From sequence record PP400778: DNA of 64,000 nucleotides; one strand, given 5' to 3'. The position numbers and the translations under genes were made by a program. Positions 1,476-61,894 of the stretch are shown piece after piece (position 1 is the stretch's first letter; every line of letters starts with the position of its first letter). The notes under the pieces are model-generated. The model was not told the origin of the DNA, made no database searches, and saw only the letters and a list, made by a program, of their open reading frames with translations. The stretch is from Escherichia phage FL15.

Positions 1476-2642
1476 TCTTTTTCAAAAGATTTTACGATAT
1501 ACATGATGGTGCTCAATTCGGACGGCGCTACTGTCTCTGTGTAGCCATCCGGCATATCTTCTTTCGAGATATAGGAAGTTTTACCTTTCATTACTTCCTT
1601 GATTTTGTTCTCTAATTCTAAGATCTTTTGACCGTCTTGTAAAGTCAATTCATAAAAGATCTCATGATCGAACTTTGAAACACGAGATTGGTTTCTCATG
1701 CGCTCATGTGTTTCTTTGTTTGTTATTCCAAATTTCACGCCAACAAAGGAATCATTGTTGGTTAATTTCTGTATATAAAGAGTTCCTGTCTTTAATGCCT
1801 GATAACCATGCTTAGAACACAACGGGCAGCGTGTTCCGCGATTAACAAAATTATCAATAGTTACATCCCATTCATGGTTACGTTCGCATGTCAGAAGTAT
1901 TCTTGTTAATGCACCTTTCCACTTTCCTGAAATCCCAATAAATTTTAGTCTGTTGGTTTCGCATATTTTTTTCAATTTGTTTTAATCGGTCACTTTTTGT
2001 TATTGGTGCTGTTCCGCTACATTTGCGACACCGACGACCTAGTTTGAACTTATCATAACTTTGTTCGTAAATGTGATTATTAGGACACTCAAATTTAAGT
2101 TTAGTTTTTGTTCCTCTCCATTCCCCAATTATACCCAAAAATTTATAATCTCCTTTATTTTCATTTATATAAGATAAGGAATCTTCTTTATCATGCATCT
2201 TGCCCCCGTTACATAAAGGACATCTTGTTTTTTGATGAATGAAATCTGTATATGTTGGTTGGTATGTGTGTCCGTTTGTACAGTTCATAATGAGTCTTGT
2301 TCTGCTATTTTTATACTCCCCACCAACAAAACCAACAAATACATCGTTTGTTTCTTGTTTTATTCTTTCTATCACATTGTTTGGGTTTAATCTTTGAGAA
2401 TCAACCACACATTTCTTACACGAAACGTTTTTCCTGATATTTGCTAGAGTTGATGTGTATTCATGCTTGTTATTACATAATATAAGAGCTTTTGTTTTGA
2501 GACCAGACCATTCTCCAACAAACCCCATGAAAGAATAACCAACTTCCAAACATGAATTTTTTACAACATTTTCCCAATAGAAGGGAGTTTTCGTGTTTCC
2601 TTTTATTTCTATACTAATCTCATGTGCTTGACGTACTAACAT
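1463..2642 (-). CDS. protein with four tandem ~65-aa Cys/His zinc-ribbon-like repeats, interrupted by a frameshift in an A7 run (ORFs 1878..2642 and 1463..1975)
   Basis: Repeats G-[FI]-x-G-x-W-x-G-x-x-T-[KR]...C-x3-H...C-x2-C occur 3x in the upstream ORF and 1x in the overlapping downstream ORF; linker lengths match only if one A is removed from the A7 run (plus T7 at 1966-1972). Start ATG 2642 has a GGAGGA SD. Confidence 0.55.
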
Positions 2643-2672
2643 ATTTTTATCCTCCGTTGTTTCGATGATTGT

Positions 2673-2700
2673 ATTATACATTACCACATCAGCATGTCAA
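2673..2700 (-). promoter_or_regulatory. sigma70-type early promoter (TTGACA-16-TATAAT)
   Basis: Minus strand TTGACA (2695-2700) and TATAAT (2673-2678), then leader CATCGAAACAACGGAGGA upstream of ATG 2642. Confidence 0.55.
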
Positions 2701-2723
2701 TACATTTTCATAAAATTTTAGGC

Positions 2724-2754
2724 AATAAAAAAAGCCTTCCCGAAGGAAGGCTTT
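2724..2754 (-). terminator. intrinsic terminator downstream of gene 32
   Basis: Hairpin AAGCCTTCC-CGAA-GGAAGGCTT followed by a U-run on the minus strand, just after the gene 32 stop. Confidence 0.7.
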
Positions 2755-2762
2755 AAAATTCA

Positions 2763-3731
2763 TTACATCCCTAACAGAGCGTCAAGATCATCCAGATCAG
2801 AAGCGGAGGAAGTACCGCCACCCAGGTCCAGAGATGCCATCAGGTCATCAGCGGAAGAATCTAACGCCGTGCTAGCTGCGTTAATACCAACTACAGTGCT
2901 AGCTGCGGTAGTACCAGCGTCGAATGCATTCATCTGTGCGTCAAAATCATCAAGCTGGCTGTTAATCGCTGCCGCAGCACTGGAAGCCGCAGCACCAGCT
3001 ACCATAGAAACGCCCATAGTTTTCTTAAATTTGGTTTCCAGTTCATCGAACGGTTTAAACTGGCTAGGTGCTACAATCTCACTCAGATCAACCATGTTTT
3101 CCATCAGATATTTCTGATATGCTTCGTCTTCAATTTTCGGAAGCTGTGATTGCTGCATGAAACGAGAATCATCATAGTTCTGGTGTTTATCAACCTTCTT
3201 AGCTTTCAGGAGGAAGTTAGCACCGGAGAACACACAAGTTACATCTACCGGAACTTCGCCCATGTCGGTATTCACGTTCACCATTGCAACGATCTTATCA
3301 TAAATTTTCTGACCGAAGCGGAATTTGAATACCTTACCTTCATTTTCTGGTGCTTGAGGATCTTTCAGTACCAGAATGTTTGCGTAGTAAGACGCTTTAC
3401 GCTTAATCAGTTGCCATTCGGTTTTATCGGTATTGTACAAGTCTTTTTCGTTAATATATTTGCACACAGGGCAAGAATCAAAATCACCGTGGGTGCTGGA
3501 GCAGTTTTCCCAATACCATTTGCCATTAACTTTGAAGGAATGGTTTACCAGTTTCACAATCGGCAGACCGTCTTCTGTCTTAGACGGCAGGAAGCGAATC
3601 AGGGCTTCACCGTTACCTGCTGCATCAGTCTTAATCTTCCACTCTTTCGGATCTTCTTTGGAGAAACCGTTGCCACCTTTCAGTGCGGCCAGTTGAGCTT
3701 GCAGTCTGGAAGAATCTTGGCGTTTAAACAT
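2763..3731 (-). CDS. 32: single-stranded DNA-binding protein gp32
   Basis: Strong similarity to T4 gp32 ([28 protein letters not shown], acidic C-terminal tail); start at MFKRQ with AAGGAA SD. Confidence 0.95.
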
Positions 3732-30533: not shown

Positions 30534-30561
30534 ATTATAGAGAATCTCCCTTGTATGTCAA
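30534..30561 (-). promoter_or_regulatory. sigma70-type early promoter (TTGACA-16-TATAAT)
   Basis: Minus strand TTGACA (30556-30561) and TATAAT (30534-30539) with GGGAGA...TCTCCC inverted repeats around the -10. Confidence 0.5.
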
Positions 30562-31121
30562 CTAAAATTTAAAGATGCAAACTCCCCGTGATGAATTTTT
30601 GCATATTCATCATATGCTCTAGCGGCTTCCTCCTGAGTAGCAAACGATCCTATGTATTTTCTGTATCCGTTTATCCTTATTTGTGCTTGCCACGGTCTTT
30701 TGCTAGATCCTTTGCGATGAGTAACACCATTATATATGCTCGTGCACCCGTCCATTTTCTTTTTATTGTACATGTTTTGTTGTTGTGTTGCCTCCCGTAA
30801 ATTTGGTGGATTGTTGTTTTCTGGATTCCCGTCTATGTGGTCTATTACCTTAACCTGTGTTCCATATTCAAGAAACCAGACAATTCTATGTACAAGATAT
30901 GTAGATGTTCTCTTTTTAACCTTATTGTAAACATCTATTGCCAAATGACCGTAATTTAACTTTTTTGTTTTTACTTTATCACCGACTCGGTAGAAATATC
31001 CCTCTGGTAGACCATTAAAAGACGGACTATTTGTTTTGTGATATAGAACACCTTCCGTGTGTTCAAATCTGCGTTTTAATTCCTCTTGAATTTCAGTATT
31101 CCAAAATTTCGCACTTTTCAT
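30558..31121 (-). CDS. free-standing HNH homing endonuclease with AP2 domain (paralog of 6758-7321)
   Basis: 187 aa; LVHRIVWFLEYGTQVKVIDHIDGNPENNNPPNLREATQQQN and YNGVTH...WQAQIRINGYRKYIGSFATQEEAARAYD; begins 1 nt after the gp39 stop. Confidence 0.8.
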   Translation of the reverse strand: MKSAKFWNTEIQEELKRRFEHTEGVLYHKTNSPSFNGLPEGYFYRVGDKVKTKKLNYGHLAIDVYNKVKKRTSTYLVHRIVWFLEYGTQVKVIDHIDGNPENNNPPNLREATQQQNMYNKKKMDGCTSIYNGVTHRKGSSKRPWQAQIRINGYRKYIGSFATQEEAARAYDEYAKIHHGEFASLNFS

Positions 31122-33045: not shown

Positions 33046-33219
33046 TCATGACACGCGCACATTTTTATCATAGTACCCGCCATTAATCCCGCGCGGGGCA
33101 GTCAATCCCTGTTTGCATTCTTTACCGCATTCAGGGCATTCTGCCTTTTCACGCTCGGAAATTTTGCGGATTTTCTGAAATTGACCGTGTTCTTCACAAG
33201 AATAATCGTATAATGGCAT
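33046..33219 (-). CDS. FmdB-family zinc-ribbon protein
   Basis: 57 aa from ATG 33219: MPLYDYSCEEHGQF...CPECGK with two CxxC pairs; AAGGGG SD. Confidence 0.6.
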   Translation of the reverse strand: MPLYDYSCEEHGQFQKIRKISEREKAECPECGKECKQGLTAPRGINGGYYDKNVRVS

Positions 33220-33220
33220 A

Positions 33221-33889
33221 TTATCCCCTTTGTTTCTTAACTGAATTTGGATCTGGATTTTCTGGTAGGTCTTCCAGACCCATAGCATAACGTTGTGCAT
33301 AGATTAGCATAAGAATATCGCGAGCGCAATCATGAATTGCATCATGTGCGATAAAACCATCTAGCGTACCCATTGGTAACGGACACTCACACATCCCGCG
33401 ATGCATCAATGTACGCTCAATGGCGGTGCGAACATCTCGGATATTCCAGAATCGCACAGGTTCAAGGCTGAACGTCTCTCGTGTATTGTGTGCACGGCGG
33501 ATCATATCAACTAGTAACGGAATATCAAACGCATTACCGCGTGACCACATTACGGATTTAACCGGATCTACCCCTACGGCTTCACAGAATGCGTTAAAAC
33601 GCGCTAAACCTTCTTTAGTTGATACTTCCGTACCATTTGTGATTAATTGCTTTCTCATGCCTTCTGAGGCGGTATTCTTCCACCATTCAACTACACCATG
33701 ATCAAACACCCTTACACCTTTCTGGGAAGGAATATCAAATTTTACCAGAAAGGAATTGTCAACCAGTTCTTTAAATGTAGGTGGGTTGTGCGGATCTTCT
33801 TTAAATCCGATTGCCGCCATATTGATCACCGCCCCATCAGGCGGATAACCTAAACTTTCAAAGTCAATCATTAAATCCACTGGAAGCAT
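33221..33889 (-). CDS. dexA: exonuclease A (DnaQ-like 3'-5' exonuclease)
   Basis: Matches T4 DexA (IDFE..G, KFD..SQKG, WWKN, FD.PLLVD.IR, LEP.RFWN.RD.RT, CPLP.GTLDGF.AHD.IHDCA.DILM..YA.RYAMGLED). Confidence 0.9.
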   Translation of the reverse strand: MLPVDLMIDFESLGYPPDGAVINMAAIGFKEDPHNPPTFKELVDNSFLVKFDIPSQKGVRVFDHGVVEWWKNTASEGMRKQLITNGTEVSTKEGLARFNAFCEAVGVDPVKSVMWSRGNAFDIPLLVDMIRRAHNTRETFSLEPVRFWNIRDVRTAIERTLMHRGMCECPLPMGTLDGFIAHDAIHDCARDILMLIYAQRYAMGLEDLPENPDPNSVKKQRG

Positions 33890-33890
33890 T

Positions 33891-34133
33891 TTAAATATCC
33901 TCCGCGATATGCCGGAACAACTCCAGATCGTTTTTATCCAGAATGAAACCGCTACAATCAATAATCCCGTTACCGTAATTATCGGTTAACAGTCGTTCCG
34001 TTGCCATGTATGCGCGTACTTTGTTGTTAAAATTCATTACATGTTGTGCATAGTCACAATGAATCTTTTGACGGTTCCACGCGACAATTGATTGTAGATG
34101 TATTACATTAGCCACATTATCAATAACAACCAT
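33891..34133 (-). CDS. hypothetical protein
   Basis: 80-aa ORF abutting dexA. Confidence 0.45.
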   Translation of the reverse strand: MVVIDNVANVIHLQSIVAWNRQKIHCDYAQHVMNFNNKVRAYMATERLLTDNYGNGIIDCSGFILDKNDLELFRHIAEDI

Positions 34134-39906: not shown

Positions 39907-40542
39907 TCAAGCGAACGTAGAAAGCAAATGTTTTGTTTCTTTCAGTTGTCGTTCAAGATCTTTGCGTTTCTCTTTAAGTTGCATTTTAGCATTATTTCGC
40001 TGTTTTTCAACATCTTTATCAATATGCTTAGTCCAATTATCAATATCAGAATAAGTTGGCATACCCAATTCTAGACCTAATGCGGTTGGATACAGGGTAA
40101 CAGTCCATAAACCGCTAATCTTCTTAAATAGGTCTGTGTGTAGTGTACTATCTACATCTTCCGGTGTCAACTCTTTTTCTTCTTTCAGTGGTGGGATCTC
40201 GTCATATGGTTCCAGTGCATTTACTTTAATATCAGATACCTCATCAAAGAATCCGCGTACATCCGCAGGAAATACACAAGCAATTTCCCAACCGTGATCA
40301 CGCAGAGAAGTAATATTTTTCACTCCCCCACCATGTGTGATGATTGATGTGACATTGCCATCAAGGTCCACCGAATTTACGAGAAATGGCTTATCGTCTG
40401 TCAGATCATTATAAAACTGTGCTTCGGCTGTAGTCATCTCCAGAAACAGATCTCGGATCGGACGACCATCCGGTGCGTTACCTTCCTTGAGAGTATAAAA
40501 GCGACTTACGATCCATTTTGGCGGTAAAGCATTAGCAATCAT
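39907..40542 (-). CDS. hypothetical protein
   Basis: 211-aa ORF between gene 41 and the small-ORF chain. Confidence 0.5.
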   Translation of the reverse strand: MIANALPPKWIVSRFYTLKEGNAPDGRPIRDLFLEMTTAEAQFYNDLTDDKPFLVNSVDLDGNVTSIITHGGGVKNITSLRDHGWEIACVFPADVRGFFDEVSDIKVNALEPYDEIPPLKEEKELTPEDVDSTLHTDLFKKISGLWTVTLYPTALGLELGMPTYSDIDNWTKHIDKDVEKQRNNAKMQLKEKRKDLERQLKETKHLLSTFA

Positions 40543-55461: not shown

Positions 55462-56931
55462 CTATTCCCCATTACCATTATACTTTCTTTGCTTAGTTAT
55501 CCACACTCTAACCATCTCTACAGATTCACCGTCAGACGGATCAAGAGTTTTTCCTTTTTTCTTCATGCGGTACTTAAATCCGTTAAATCTTGCATTCTCT
55601 TGCTCGTTAAAGTCGAACATCTTTTTAAATGATTTTCGCCCTTTACGCTCACCACATTCTAGCGGAATCATTCGGTCTGTTATTACATTGGCATTAGGTA
55701 GAAACGTTTTTAGATAATCCACCAACGCCCAATCAGGAACATATAGATTAACATTCTCCTTGCTCTCGTTGTCTCTCAGGTTACAACGCAAACATAATTG
55801 AAATGCTGGTTCCAGATAATCAGACACATGACGCGCTTTCAAAAACTCGTTTGTCGGGAGATCACAACTATTAGCAAGACCTTTTAAAATATCAATCTCC
55901 CATCGTTGAGGGTTAAAGCTGAACATCACAGCAACATTTTTATGATGAATGTAAGAGTTAAGACCATAAGATCCGTAAGGTATCCGCTCACCAATACCAT
56001 TTGTACACGCTTCACGGTCCCGATTCACGGTATAAATGAAGTCATCGCCACATTCATTTTTAACCATATCAACAAGACGTTCAAAGGTATTGTTTGTTTC
56101 TGACTGGTGACGCGACCATCGTTCAGAGTCCGTCATAAGGATGATATTAACTCTATCTGTATTTTTATACTCTTTGAAATATAGTCTGGATTCTAGCGCA
56201 CTCGGAACAAAATCGCAATTTGCATAGTATCGTAGATACTTCCCACTATATGTATCAAAGAGATTTGCACATGCTATCGTAACCTTTTTAAAGTCTCCCC
56301 ACGTACCGTGTTTGTTATCGTTCAAGAAAACAATTTTCGACCCATTCTTCCGGTGTCCTTCGTTATGTTTTACCATAACGTTGATTTTCTTCTCTAATAA
56401 CGCCTCATAAAGCCCTCTAAGAGAAGAATCGATCATATCAGTACCATCCTTTGCACTTTCTATCTTTTCTTTGATAGCGGCCTTCTCAGAGTCTTTTAGA
56501 ACTAAGTTCTGTAGGCATTCCGATTCGTCGGCGATTGGTTCGCAATGCTTCGTGATAAGTTCAAGATTAGACTTAAACGGATACTCATTAAATTCAACCA
56601 GTTGAGGAACTTCATCAATGTAAAGAGCATATTCACCAAAAATTTTTGAACGTTCCATATTAGATAACGCTGTATGTGTAATGAATATCACATCAGCACC
56701 GTCTTTAACTGATTGCATTATCGACGCTTGCACTGTCTTAAGGCTTCTTAGTCGTGTGCTATCAATCAAGACAGCACGACCACCCATTCTTTTAAACTTA
56801 TTGTAAGATTGTTCACTTAAAACACGAGATGGCGAAGCAATAACCGCTTTTTCTTTTGTCTCTAGGACGTGGGAAAGTATAGCATCAGTTTTCCCCGCCG
56901 CTGGCAATGCGATTAATGTTTCAATCTTCAT
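55462..56931 (-). CDS. P-loop NTPase of unknown function (489 aa)
   Basis: N-terminal Walker A-like LPAAGKT and Walker B-like ALYIDEV; large Cys/Trp/Tyr-rich C-terminal region without recognisable motifs; sits where T4 has alpha-gt. Confidence 0.6.
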   Translation of the reverse strand: MKIETLIALPAAGKTDAILSHVLETKEKAVIASPSRVLSEQSYNKFKRMGGRAVLIDSTRLRSLKTVQASIMQSVKDGADVIFITHTALSNMERSKIFGEYALYIDEVPQLVEFNEYPFKSNLELITKHCEPIADESECLQNLVLKDSEKAAIKEKIESAKDGTDMIDSSLRGLYEALLEKKINVMVKHNEGHRKNGSKIVFLNDNKHGTWGDFKKVTIACANLFDTYSGKYLRYYANCDFVPSALESRLYFKEYKNTDRVNIILMTDSERWSRHQSETNNTFERLVDMVKNECGDDFIYTVNRDREACTNGIGERIPYGSYGLNSYIHHKNVAVMFSFNPQRWEIDILKGLANSCDLPTNEFLKARHVSDYLEPAFQLCLRCNLRDNESKENVNLYVPDWALVDYLKTFLPNANVITDRMIPLECGERKGRKSFKKMFDFNEQENARFNGFKYRMKKKGKTLDPSDGESVEMVRVWITKQRKYNGNGE

Positions 56932-57218: not shown

Positions 57219-57240
57219 AATATATTCCTCACTCAAGAAT

Positions 57241-57399
57241 TACTTAATGATACTTACTTTACCAGATCCATGACAATGAGCGCAACACCCATCACCACGC
57301 AATCCTGTTCCGTTACAGTGTTTACACTTCTTCAACGGTAAAGCCATTATAGCAAATAAAGCAATAATGAACACCGAAACTAAATTCTCAATAATCATA
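57241..57399 (-). CDS. 52-aa membrane-anchored mini-protein with two CxxCxGxG (DnaJ-type) zinc-finger motifs
   Basis: Below track cutoff; MIIENLVSVFIIALFAIMALPLKKCKHCNGTGLRGDGCCAHCHGSGKVSIIK; GAGGG SD; overlaps the nrdH 3' end. Confidence 0.4.
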
Positions 57400-57657
57400 A
57401 ATCGCCCTCAGTTCTTTATAGCCTCCAATGTGCTCGTTGTCAATGAATATCTGGGGGTATACAAACCGGAGGCTCTTTGAGTTTAGCCTCCCCGCCAGTT
57501 CTTCAATCATATCACGGTCGGGAATAATGTCAACCCCGACCTGCTTGAATACTGGTTTAAGTGTATACGGAATACCCAGATCATCCAGTAGCTTCATTGC
57601 ACTAATACAACCATAACAATGATAAGCCTCTTTCGGTATACCGTATATCTCGATCAT
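57388..57657 (-). CDS. nrdH: NrdH-like glutaredoxin
   Basis: 89 aa; thioredoxin-fold pattern with CYGC redox motif near the N-terminus; T4 nrdH position. Confidence 0.8.
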   Translation of the reverse strand: MIEIYGIPKEAYHCYGCISAMKLLDDLGIPYTLKPVFKQVGVDIIPDRDMIEELAGRLNSKSLRFVYPQIFIDNEHIGGYKELRAIYDY

Positions 57658-58138
57658 TTCTCAGCCTTTAATCTTTCTAGTTCTTCTTCCAGTTCCTTAA
57701 TGCGCTTCTCGCGTTCAATATCACGTTGGATCTTAGTGGCGAATACTCGTTTAAACTGATTATAGTCATCAATTTTAAATACTTCCTCTTCACCGTATCG
57801 ACGTACAGAAACTTCGTAGTTGTTGAAAAATTGTTCCAACATTGCATCAGTGGTCAGTTCTGCCGATACCACTTTAAAATGACGTTCTTCTGATTGCAAA
57901 AACCAGTTGTGCGCGTATTCCCGTACATCATCAACATTGCGGCAGGTGTATACCGTGCCATCAATTTCAATCGCAGAAACATAATCAACATCCGATGCAT
58001 GGTGATCAAATGCGATAACTTTAAATGGACGGTCGCCTATAAACTCTGCTATTGCATCATTTACAACGCTAAAGTTTGCAAAATCTTCTCTCGTTTTCTT
58101 ATCTTTCCACTGATAGGTCACGCCAGCAACAAACATAT
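57654..58138 (-). CDS. member of tandem paralog family (WxD N-domain + coiled-coil tail)
   Basis: Start MFVAGVTYQWKDKK (GAGGA SD); N-domain aligns with neighbours (TYxW+D ... DRPF ... IEIDG ... +FF.EV); Glu/Lys-rich C-terminus. Confidence 0.6.
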
Positions 58139-58962
58139 TACCATCCTCGCTCTTTACCAATCAAAAATTCAACTTCACGACGTTTAATGTCTTCTTGAAG
58201 GTCTTTAATCTTCTGTCGGTCTTGCATGATTTCATCCATCTTGTCAAGTGCCGCAATGAAATCATCGAAACGTTCAAAGGTTTTACCTTCATTTGCTTCG
58301 CCAAATTTAACCATTGTCAGGCCGTAACGACTACTAAACAGACGTTTCAACTGTCCAACGATTTTAGAATCAGTGGTTATAACTTCCAATTCTTCTACTT
58401 CACGAAAGAATTTTCTATCAGAATCAATAAACCAGCTAGTTCCTTTATGGTCTCTATCTTCGGTTGCGCTCATTAGAGTATGGTCTTTACCATCAATTTC
58501 AATTACATCAATTTGCCCACATGGACTAACATTTTTAACAGTAAAAGGTCTATAATTTATTGCTCGTGCAATAACATAATTAAGGTTAGATACGTTTTCA
58601 GCATAATGACAGAAGTCGGTCATAGCATTCGCATCTTTCCAAGTATAAGTTTTACCAACTTCCCATTTCTGGGGAACTTCTTCAACTTCACGAAAGAATT
58701 TTCTATCGAATGGACTAAAGAAATATGTTGCAGTCCAAATGTCTTTTCCTGTAGCAGTTTTCGCCGTATGATAAACACCGTCTAGCTCTATTGCATCAAT
58801 CCAACCGTTACTCTCGATCTCGATGATGGTAAATGGCTTGTCACCAATAGCTGCACTGATATCGCTGTTAAGTGGAGAAAGAACACCTTCTCCGTTAGTA
58901 ATAAACTCAGTTTTAGCGTTTTCATCTCTCCAAGTGTAAGTTTTACCAATTTCCCATTTCAT
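58138..58962 (-). CDS. member of tandem paralog family carrying two N-domain copies
   Basis: 274 aa; MKWEIGKTYTWRD...DRKFFREVEE repeated as KWEVGKTYTWKD...DRKFFREVEE, then a helical tail. Confidence 0.65.
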   Translation of the reverse strand: MKWEIGKTYTWRDENAKTEFITNGEGVLSPLNSDISAAIGDKPFTIIEIESNGWIDAIELDGVYHTAKTATGKDIWTATYFFSPFDRKFFREVEEVPQKWEVGKTYTWKDANAMTDFCHYAENVSNLNYVIARAINYRPFTVKNVSPCGQIDVIEIDGKDHTLMSATEDRDHKGTSWFIDSDRKFFREVEELEVITTDSKIVGQLKRLFSSRYGLTMVKFGEANEGKTFERFDDFIAALDKMDEIMQDRQKIKDLQEDIKRREVEFLIGKERGW

Positions 58963-58974
58963 AATATATTCCCC

Positions 58975-59440
58975 TTAACCGATTTTATCAAGTTCGTTTA
59001 ATGCTTTCTCAGCTTCCTGTATAGCTTGCACTCTTTCCGGCATTTTGTCAAGAAAATCTTTCAACTCTTCAAAACTGGAGATATGACGCAAGGCGTTAGC
59101 ACCGATAGCCGCATGTGATTTGCATTCAAAGCGGATTTTATAATTATCCATCGCCAATTTGAGAAGATCAATTAATTTAGATTCTTCTGGAATAATAATT
59201 TCTTCAAATCTGCTACGGTCATGATCCAGAAACCAACAAGATAGACCTACATCGGTTGAACTCATATAAGTTCCATCATGAAGATAAACAGACCGCACGT
59301 ATCCTTTTTTTCGCATCAACCGACGCAACTTTAAACGGTAATCGCAGATATTTCAAATAATCAACATCATACCATTTAAAAAATTGGTTTGCATCTTTTA
59401 CATCTTTCCACGCATAGGTCTTACCAGCTTCCCATTTCAT
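58975..59440 (-). pseudogene. member of tandem paralog family interrupted by a frameshift at an A7 run
   Basis: N-domain start MKWEAGKTYAWKD (ATG 59440) is in a different frame from the rest (58975-59328); frames join at the A7 run (plus T7 59305-59311) and would be continuous with one fewer A. Confidence 0.55.
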
Positions 59441-59444
59441 AATA

Positions 59445-59972
59445 TCATCTCTCATTTTTGATACGTGATTCTAATTGGATCATACGGTCGCGCGTTTGTT
59501 TGTATTCTCGGATAGCACCGATCCGGCTAGGCATACCATCCAGTACGCTCTTAATACCTTCTAGGGTAGTAATTTTGGCAATGCTATTATGTAACCCCAT
59601 CTTATCGATCAACTGAATGTCGTAGGCTTCCATAAGCAGACCCAGGCGTTCTAAAGTTAGGTCTTCTTCTTTTTCTTCCGAATCTGGAATCTTAGGTTCA
59701 ATAGCAACTTCGGTAAAGAAACGACGCTCACCCGACCAAAACCACACACCGGAACAGCCAATAGGGGATTCTTTTAACGTCATAGAGTCGAAATTACTAC
59801 CAATAATAGTAATTTCTCTAACATCACCATCATCGTCAAGGTCTTCTACCCTAAACGGGCGACCAGCCAACAAGTCAACAATACATCTGTTAATAGACGA
59901 CGAAAATTTAGTAAGTTCGGCTTTCGACGCTTCGCATTCAATCTTGTAAGTTTTACCAACTTCCCATTCCAT
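59445..59972 (-). CDS. member of tandem paralog family
   Basis: Start MEWEVGKTYK with GAGGTG SD; same N-domain and helical C-terminal tail. Confidence 0.65.
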   Translation of the reverse strand: MEWEVGKTYKIECEASKAELTKFSSSINRCIVDLLAGRPFRVEDLDDDGDVREITIIGSNFDSMTLKESPIGCSGVWFWSGERRFFTEVAIEPKIPDSEEKEEDLTLERLGLLMEAYDIQLIDKMGLHNSIAKITTLEGIKSVLDGMPSRIGAIREYKQTRDRMIQLESRIKNER

Positions 59973-59982
59973 AATAATCACC

Positions 59983-60486
59983 TCAAATAATTTTCACTGG
60001 AATACTATTAACAATCTTGTATTGTACTTGATTGTCAGACCCCCGCCACGGCTTCTTCGTTGGCATATCTTTAATATAACGCCCATCGATGAACATGTCA
60101 ACTGATTCTACAATTTTTCTTTGCTCATCATTCAATTGGTCAAGGGTATAACCGGACCATAGCCAAATATCTTTATTTGGCATCCATGATTTTACTTCAT
60201 CGATGATCCGCTGTACACCCTTTAAATTGCGTTTATACAGTGGATCGCCACCTAAGAATGTTAGCCCCTGAATAAAATCAGGTCTAAGCAGATCCAGAAT
60301 CAATCCCATTGTATCATCGGTGAATGGTTCCCCGTTCTTAGGATTGAGTAGACTAGCATTAAAGCAACCATCACATGCGTGTGAACATCCGGTAACGTAA
60401 AGGGAGACTCTCACTCCCTCACCGTTAACCATATCACAATCTTTAATATCGGCATAGCGTAGTTTGCCGTATGTATCAGAACTCAT
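59983..60486 (-). CDS. nrdG: anaerobic ribonucleotide reductase activating protein NrdG (radical SAM)
   Basis: CxxxCxxC radical-SAM cluster (CSHACDGCFN), GGDPL, WLWSGY, WRGS.NQ match T4 NrdG. Confidence 0.9.
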   Translation of the reverse strand: MSSDTYGKLRYADIKDCDMVNGEGVRVSLYVTGCSHACDGCFNASLLNPKNGEPFTDDTMGLILDLLRPDFIQGLTFLGGDPLYKRNLKGVQRIIDEVKSWMPNKDIWLWSGYTLDQLNDEQRKIVESVDMFIDGRYIKDMPTKKPWRGSDNQVQYKIVNSIPVKII

Positions 60487-60628
60487 ATTCAATTACCCCG
60501 AACTCGTTTACAATCTGCGCTTTATAGTAACCACCGCGAGATGCTAATAGATAAGCTGGGCTTAGGTATTCGTATTCACGGATTTCTACTTGTGCGTTTT
60601 CAGTTTCCCAAATCAGTAAAGTCCACAT
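60476..60628 (-). CDS. hypothetical small protein (50 aa)
   Basis: ATG 60628 (MWTLLIW...) preceded by conserved leader CAGGAGAATCAAAT; the longer track ORF would include the promoter. Confidence 0.45.
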   Translation of the reverse strand: MWTLLIWETENAQVEIREYEYLSPAYLLASRGGYYKAQIVNEFGVIEYEF

Positions 60629-61823: not shown

Positions 61824-61851
61824 ATTATACATGAGCTAATCATGTTGTCAA
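61824..61851 (-). promoter_or_regulatory. sigma70-type early promoter (TTGACA-16-TATAAT)
   Basis: Minus strand TTGACA (61846-61851), TATAAT (61824-61829), leader CATCGAAAACAACGAGAGGA. Confidence 0.6.
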
Positions 61852-61862
61852 CACCCCAAAAC

Positions 61863-61894
61863 GAAAAAGCCGACCCTTTCGGATCGGCTAAAAA
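61863..61894 (-). terminator. intrinsic terminator after nrdD
   Basis: AGCCGATCC-GAAA-GGGTCGGCT hairpin flanked by A/T runs on both sides; third copy of this conserved stem. Confidence 0.7.

Follow-up and report, generated by a model that had tools for sequence, protein, structure and literature searches.

Four genes between nrdG and nrdH

The DNA analysed here, a stretch of 64,000 nucleotides from Escherichia phage FL15 (sequence record PP400778; hereafter the window), derives from a T4-type, RB49-like phage (genus Krischvirus) and carries, between nrdG and nrdH, an array of four consecutive and co-directional genes on the minus strand, which appear closely packed or overlapping in the open reading frame (ORF) listing. 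These genes are referred to as G4, G3, G2 and G1, counted from nrdG towards nrdH, and their orthologues in RB49 (RB49p051, RB49p050, RB49p049 and RB49p048, respectively) are annotated as hypothetical proteins. The flanking genes are annotated as nrdG and nrdH in RB49 as well, and in the window nrdG (59983-60492) gave a match to Fer4_12 with an E-value of 2e-43, and nrdH (57388-57657) a match to Glutaredoxin. The region from nrdH to nrdG was matched at 93-99% identity by 58 phage records, 56 of which aligned over at least 80% of it.

Each gene begins with a domain of about 92 amino acids, named here the barrel after its predicted fold and present in five copies in the whole array, and ends with a tail. 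G4 (59445-59972), taken from the ORF list, encodes 175 amino acids and matches PHROG 5347 with an E-value of 4e-66; its GoF-type barrel (59694-59972) covers residues 1-93, after which come a disordered linker of acidic character and a helical tail. G3 (58975-59440) would encode 154 amino acids if intact and here lies in two frames, with both fragments matching PHROG 5347; alignment with RB49, PHB13 and ECD7 placed its barrel at about 59185-59440 and its tail at about 58978-59184. G2 (58138-58962) encodes 274 amino acids, in which the profile hidden Markov model (HMM) gave two domains and two stretches matched PHROG 5347, corresponding to barrel a (58672-58962; residues 1-97) and barrel b (58384-58671; residues 98-193), followed by the tail (58141-58383). 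Finally, G1 (57654-58136) encodes 160 amino acids, with a barrel at 57861-58136 and then a Glu/Lys-rich helical tail; it starts with the ATG at 58136 rather than with a TTG further upstream (58160), and its stop codon overlaps the start codon of nrdH.

When the five copies of the N-terminal domain were compared by BLASTP in a small database, the pairwise identities were 25-50% across some 90 amino acids, with E-values from 7e-4 to 7e-28, the latter for the two copies inside G2, which share 50% identity. Moreover, every gene piece of the array matched PHROG 5347 independently, with E-values from 8e-14 to 2e-92. A previous sequence-only reading of the window had described here a tandem array of four paralogous genes with five domain copies between nrdH and nrdG, one of the genes carrying the domain twice and another one being frameshifted. 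The ORF list, BLASTP and PHROG 5347 bear this description out, with G2 and G3 as the respective genes, and the consensus motifs quoted in that reading are visible in the alignment. The serial duplication that it proposed is also real: whole genes were duplicated, and so was one barrel inside G2.

The two frames of G3 are produced by a single extra A in a run of six, resulting in an A7 homopolymer at 59305-59311 (minus strand). The run is intact (A6) in the aligned sequences of RB49, PHB13 and ECD7, and the insertion was carried by none of the 28 database records with the same allele; the best 13 records at this run were 99.0% identical, each matching 100 bases of a query of 101, and 100% identity was reached by none of them. 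The extra A is thus a mutation private to this genome or else a sequencing error in the homopolymer. Programmed frameshifting at this run was rejected, as the relatives all have A6 with an intact gene. In a comparison set of arrays from 18 genomes, obtained from GenBank phage records (an IMG/VR scan with NrdG gave only two loci), a disrupted array gene was found in three of the arrays, affecting G3 in the window, G1 in ELT4 and the tail of G4 in ECD7. In ELT4, G1 is split into two ORFs (367-863 of locus L014), and in ECD7 the G4 tail switches frame near its end (2613-3104 of locus L003).

Family and predicted fold of the repeated domain

In addition to PHROG 5347, all four array genes matched, more weakly, PHROG 622 and PHROGs annotated as 'goF mRNA metabolism modulator'. 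In the reverse direction, T4 GoF matched over its whole length both PHROG 622 (E-value 5e-38) and the Krischvirus PHROG 5347 (6.5e-7), and an hhalign comparison of the Krischvirus family with GoF gave a probability of 95.3% and an E-value of 2.4e-8 over GoF residues 3-92. A barrel HMM made from Krischvirus sequences alone gave GoF a score of 33 bits; when it was iterated once on the matches of an exhaustive HMMER search, GoF reached 49.6 bits and the more distant Frd.2 and MotB.1 reached 26.2 and 19.6 bits, with 13 other small T4 proteins used as controls all below 3 bits. GoF has been grouped with Frd.2 and MotB.1 as a family by their common N-terminal beta-barrel (Kim et al., 2025; PMC12152347). 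By these profile matches, the array domain is identified as the barrel at the N-terminus of the GoF/Frd.2/MotB.1 proteins of T4-type phages and is not a new domain, and the array is a new member cluster of this recently defined family. The sequence-only reading had not recognised the domain and had taken the array, together with the adjacent NTPase, as its best candidate for an undescribed module. The domain is recognisable; the profile search named a T4 family for it, which is half of what that reading had set as its refutation, although the family is not functionally understood.

The exhaustive HMMER search, run against 1.84 billion clustered proteins, returned 50 cluster representatives at an E-value of 1e-3 or lower; the family is therefore small and restricted to phages. 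A word-indexed protein search yielded 66 proteins, solely from Krischvirus-type relatives. Scans of the array proteins against Pfam, NCBIfam and PADLOC revealed nothing meaningful, with one marginal match in PADLOC and none in NCBIfam, and when the family profile was compared with PDB sequences, no match fell below an E-value of 0.25.

The AlphaFold2 model of the G4 barrel had a predicted local distance difference test score (pLDDT) of 92 and consisted of a bent antiparallel small beta-barrel, the nearest solved relatives of which were FeoA and the SH3 barrels of IdeR type. The domain is thus predicted to be a small SH3-like beta-barrel, acidic and about 92 amino acids long. The positions conserved among the barrels belong to its motifs and core (W3, G6, Y9, the RPF motif, the WF pair and FF-EV), and the variable ones correspond to two inserted helices and to loops. 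The net charge of the barrels ranged from -6 to -12, except for that of G3, which was neutral (0). In the model of the full-length G4 protein, the barrel (residues 1-93) was followed by a disordered acidic segment (residues 94-102, pLDDT below 50) and by a helical C-terminal domain (residues 106-174), modelled with moderate confidence as a helix, a hairpin and then a helix of about 38 residues. Foldseek searches against the PDB gave no match below an E-value of 0.18, and the tail had no recognisable solved relative among them.

The likeness of the array barrel to FeoA and other SH3-like small barrels (CATH 2.30.30.90) is at the level of the fold only. The array proteins differ from FeoA (PF04023) in having no Pfam match, no significant PDB sequence match and no FeoB context, with Foldseek E-values of at least 0.18. 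The GoF/Frd.2/MotB.1 family, described as having an 'LSm-like fold', likewise has FeoA and IdeR-type SH3 barrels as nearest structural neighbours (Kim et al., 2025; PMC12152347). A similarity to Hfq and LSm proteins, however, was not reproduced for the array barrel, which in this respect is unlike the Sm/LSm (Hfq-like) RNA chaperones: Hfq and Sm proteins were absent from its top 60 structural matches, and for this reason the 'LSm-like' label is not endorsed here and the fold is called SH3-like.

Compared with T4 GoF (also ComC-alpha, an early protein of 141 amino acids), the array proteins have a homologous N-terminal barrel, show the same order of barrel, acidic linker and C-terminal domain, are acidic overall and belong to a T4-type phage, where they are probably encoded in a region that is not essential. 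In contrast, the C-terminal domain of GoF is short and acidic, whereas the array tails are composed of a helix, a hairpin and a long helix; GoF is encoded at 39-dexA and the array at nrdG-nrdH; and the array contains four tandem paralogues, one of them with two barrels.

In T4, goF, cef, motB and motB.1 lie between gene 39 and dexA, and gene 55.8 stands alone between nrdG and nrdH. In the window (33046-33961, minus strand), a 39.2-like (FmdB-like) ORF directly abuts or overlaps dexA, and the site of goF/cef/motB/motB.1 is empty. With no goF at its canonical locus, the nrdG-nrdH array is probably the GoF cluster of the Krischviruses. An HNH homing-endonuclease-like ORF (30558-31121, minus strand) was also detected in the gene 39 region, adjoining the gene for the topoisomerase large subunit.

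A sixth and more distant barrel was found elsewhere in the window, at residues 9-104 of a 211-residue protein (39907-40542, minus strand) that belongs to PHROG 16187 and is named 'Dc2' in phage ECD7 in BFVD. Its comparison with the barrel profile gave an hhalign probability of 96.5% and an E-value of 7e-10, and it was also detected by HMM matches and by a structural match in BFVD. In Yersinia phage MHG19 (918-3744 of locus L020), the canonical dexA-39 locus contains four family genes in succession, and one of these has two barrels. Tandem GoF clusters exist, then, outside Krischvirus too, and the presence of two or three barrels in one protein is recurrent among the 50 representatives of the family. 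These other GoF clusters of Straboviridae (PHROG 13003/8944, annotated as 'goF mRNA metabolism modulator', and MHG19) resemble the array in their multi-barrel proteins and consecutive family genes, but they are located at the canonical dexA-39 locus and carry other C-terminal domains. On the nrdH side of the array, a 52-residue ORF with a hydrophobic N-terminus and a CxxC...CxxC arrangement (57240-57398, minus strand; RB49p046 in RB49) was noted between a 55.2-like gene and nrdH.

Polymorphic barrels on invariant tails

All four gene slots were present in the 18 arrays compared. The number of barrels was not constant, as G2 had two barrels in 15 of the genomes and a single one in the other three; ELT4 and E26 retain barrel a, and AV108 retains barrel b. 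G2 has lost one barrel at least twice, independently.

Within each slot, barrels and tails behaved very differently. The mean pairwise amino acid identity per block of 15 columns was 0.6-0.9 in the barrel and 0.90-1.00 in the tail. By the Nei-Gojobori method, non-synonymous (dN) and synonymous (dS) divergences were 0.10-0.23 and 0.22-0.69 for the barrels, compared to 0.001-0.03 and 0.08-0.41 for the tails and to 0.002-0.004 and 0.05 for the flanking nrdG and nrdH. The corresponding ratios of non-synonymous to synonymous differences (pN/pS) were 0.2-0.6 in the barrels and 0.00-0.11 in the tails, and the difference was also detected when close, unsaturated pairs were considered (0.20-0.29 vs. 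0.00-0.07). When metagenomic proteins were added, between two and six barrel allele classes were distinguished per slot, with minimum identities of 35-65%, whereas the tails were on average 93-99.5% identical to those of the window.

Among paralogues the pattern was reversed, the tails being more diverged than the barrels. All tails are helical and charged, and clear likeness between them was found only for G3 and G4 (z 10.4) and for G1 and G2 (z 4.2). As the tails are diverged between paralogues and fixed within a slot, each slot has its own fixed tail. The variable Glu/Lys-rich helical tails of the sequence-only reading are therefore helical, charged and different from one paralogue to another, but across relatives they are the most conserved part of the proteins; the diversification which that reading had placed in them is found in the N-terminal domains, with the tails near-invariant within a slot. 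On the other hand, its expectation that the array would not be static across relatives holds, given the five or four barrels, the several allele classes per slot and the occasional disruptions. Its proposal of diversifying selection was not upheld: no region of the array genes showed a pN/pS above 1, so that positive selection is not demonstrated, and overall positive selection with pN/pS above 1 was rejected on the measured values. The barrels are relaxed or partly diversifying with respect to the strongly constrained tails, and cassette exchange acts in addition.

Evidence of such exchange came from G3. In pairs of G3 genes with different barrel classes, the synonymous divergence was 0.63 in the barrel and 0.08 in the tail of the same genes, a difference that requires recombination at the domain boundary. 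At the DNA level, the G3 genes of the window and of ECD7 were divergent from just after ATGAAATGGGAAG to the linker, the remainder being near-identical with four differences in the tail. A further rearranged form, the metagenomic protein P0055, has the start of a G4 barrel fused to a G2 tail. Barrel cassettes have been exchanged, and barrels have been lost and gained. The exchange takes place by homologous recombination between conserved flanks, namely the invariant tails and the MKWEVGKTY and DRKFFREV motifs, and the occasional loss of a barrel is attributed to unequal crossing-over. Gene conversion between slots was considered as the origin of the barrel alleles and rejected by eye, as the divergent alleles keep slot-specific motifs; for instance, the G3 alleles of ECD7 and of the window both show V.SVD..G.VRS.Y.H.G.Y.SS.DVG. 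Family identity and this evolutionary pattern, taken together, are held with high confidence.

Cassette exchange has been described in the same phage group, in the hyperplastic regions of RB49 and phi1, as modular shuffling mediated by PeSL promoter/stem-loop elements (Arbiol et al., 2010; PMC2839356). The two processes differ in that the array swaps an intragenic domain bounded by conserved coding sequence, whereas PeSL shuffling swaps whole ORFs bounded by promoter/stem-loop cassettes; the array ORFs are not mentioned in that work. An element resembling the PeSL cassettes of RB49 and phi1, consisting of a GC-rich terminator hairpin followed at once by a perfect TTGACA-16-TATAAT promoter (61824-61889, minus strand), was noted just downstream of nrdD and just upstream of the array. 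In the main text of Kim et al. (2025; PMC12152347) there is no mention of RB49 or Krischvirus, nor of tandem paralogues or of polymorphism in the barrel. No description of the relocation of the cluster to nrdG-nrdH, of the four-slot layout or of polymorphic barrels on invariant tails was found in the literature searched, including that on Krischvirus accessory genes, and these three features appear to be undescribed.

Possible role of the array proteins

The explanation that we favour, with somewhat better than even confidence, is that the array is a Krischvirus GoF-family cluster of host-takeover factors that probably act post-transcriptionally. The array proteins would be non-essential and made early in infection. 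A putative sigma-70-like promoter (TTGACA-17-TATATT; 60073-60101, minus strand), detected by consensus scan in the 3' end of nrdG at some 100 nt upstream of G4, may serve the array as an early promoter. By analogy with T4 goF genetics, the proteins would act at a post-transcriptional stage, either on mRNA or on the host machinery for RNA termination or RNA decay, the barrel possibly being a ligand-recognition module and the conserved tail, with its long helix, serving for dimerisation or for contact with a fixed partner. In T4, growth on rho-mutant hosts is recovered with the goF mutations D25Y and G84R, and the action of GoF(D25Y) is post-transcriptional: it stabilises mRNA, the half-life of which it lengthens (Kim et al., 2025; PMC12152347). 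GoF and MotB.1 run on gels as monomer plus dimer, no confident multimer models were obtained for GoF, and knock-outs of goF and motB.1 have no laboratory growth phenotype (Kim et al., 2025). The specific assignment of the array proteins to RNA metabolism, drawn from this analogy, is tentative, and we would put it at somewhat less than an even chance.

The array copies were also compared with GoF at the two suppressor positions. At that aligned with D25, the residues of G4, G2b, G1, G2a and G3 are F, Y, F, N and a gap, and at that aligned with G84 they are R, K, R, K and S, so that, unlike GoF, most array copies are natively aromatic at the first position and basic at the second one. Of 49 domains from the wider family, 20 have a basic residue in the G84 column. 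Some Krischvirus copies may thus natively resemble the T4 gain-of-function alleles, a weak lead that is to be read with the fact that the D25 column is highly variable across the wider family and that the alignment there borders an indel, both of which make the argument from suppressor positions weak. Several other points weigh against a role of the kind proposed. The acidity of the barrels, neutral only in G3, disfavours generic or direct RNA binding. Wild-type GoF and MotB.1 were nearly without effect in the reporter assay, and no function is established for wild-type GoF, MotB.1 or Frd.2 (Kim et al., 2025; PMC12152347). Early expression of the array is deduced just from the promoter consensus match and, given that three of the 18 arrays hold a disrupted gene, individual members appear to be dispensable.

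Some of these same observations would fit a role in counter-defence or as host-factor decoys, in which the barrels bind variable host proteins, such as a defence sensor or effector, and the alleles are kept because hosts differ, with the tail as a constant oligomerisation or effector module. The contrast between polymorphic barrels and invariant tails in otherwise near-identical genomes, the variable barrel copy number, the apparent dispensability of individual genes and the acidic surfaces are all consistent with it, and SH3, Tudor and FeoA-type barrels are in general protein-binding modules. Nevertheless, we regard this explanation as doubtful, though a real contender, since pN/pS was nowhere above 1, the literature searched revealed no link between goF and defence, the only match in PADLOC was marginal with none in NCBIfam, and the four slots are kept in all 18 genomes, unlike typical accessory genes with their presence/absence pattern. 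A direct effect on transcription termination, with the barrel mimicking a KOW/Tudor domain (the NusG C-terminal domain, or an RNA polymerase-binding domain of CarD/UvrD type) and acting on Rho, NusG or RNA polymerase, would account for the suppression of the T4 growth defect on rho-mutant hosts by goF mutations; it is very unlikely in view of the post-transcriptional action of GoF(D25Y) through a longer RNA half-life (Kim et al., 2025; PMC12152347), and the Pfam scan gave no sequence similarity to KOW or Tudor domains.

The disrupted genes in the window, ELT4 and ECD7, together with the knock-outs of T4 goF and motB.1 that do not affect laboratory growth, could also be taken as signs that the array is junk of a hyperplastic region, made of functionless duplicates drifting to loss. 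Little weight is given to this possibility, which we judge highly improbable, because the tails are constrained, with the very strong purifying selection seen in their pN/pS; in addition, the four slots persist in every array, nearly all the matching records align over most of the nrdH-nrdG stretch, and the core residues of the barrel are conserved. Finally, the array could form a single functional module with the P-loop, DEAD-like NTPase encoded upstream (55462-56931, minus strand; 489 amino acids, PHROG 2467, with a weak DEAD match), as the sequence-only reading had proposed. Proximity alone, at about 700 bp and in the same orientation, speaks for this, and it is scarcely credible: three conserved genes intervene (the 55.2-like gene, the small CxxC ORF and nrdH), and the NTPase shows none of the polymorphism of the array. 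Its identity is 99% or more across 53 Krischvirus records and 34-42% in distant T4-type phages, such as the Aeromonas phages and RB16, and no sequence relative of it was found in the PDB. The NTPase behaves as a conserved, core-type gene, widespread and uncharacterised in T4-type phages, and nothing links it to the array.

A more speculative proposal, unlikely in our estimation, is that GoF-type barrels are interchangeable specificity modules. In each protein, a fixed tail would engage a constant partner or mediate dimerisation, and a barrel drawn from an ancient pool of alleles would provide the recognition of host targets that vary, for instance defence proteins or factors of RNA decay or termination that are specific to a strain. 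If this were true, the array would be a domain-cassette system for host adaptation, and this would explain the role of the GoF-family proteins.

The gene goF was discovered by way of mutations that suppress the growth defect shown by T4 on rho-mutant hosts, and its wild-type function has been a long-open question. The Krischvirus records inspected all label the array genes as 'hypothetical' or 'Phage protein', labels that GoF-family naming could replace. The array supplies four natural paralogues, many barrel alleles on constant tails and natural barrel loss in both directions, with several copies natively carrying the residue types of the T4 gain-of-function alleles. These variants are ready reagents for studying the ligand of the barrel and for deciding between RNA and protein as the target of the family, and the polymorphic barrels on invariant tails make the question of GoF-family function more tractable.

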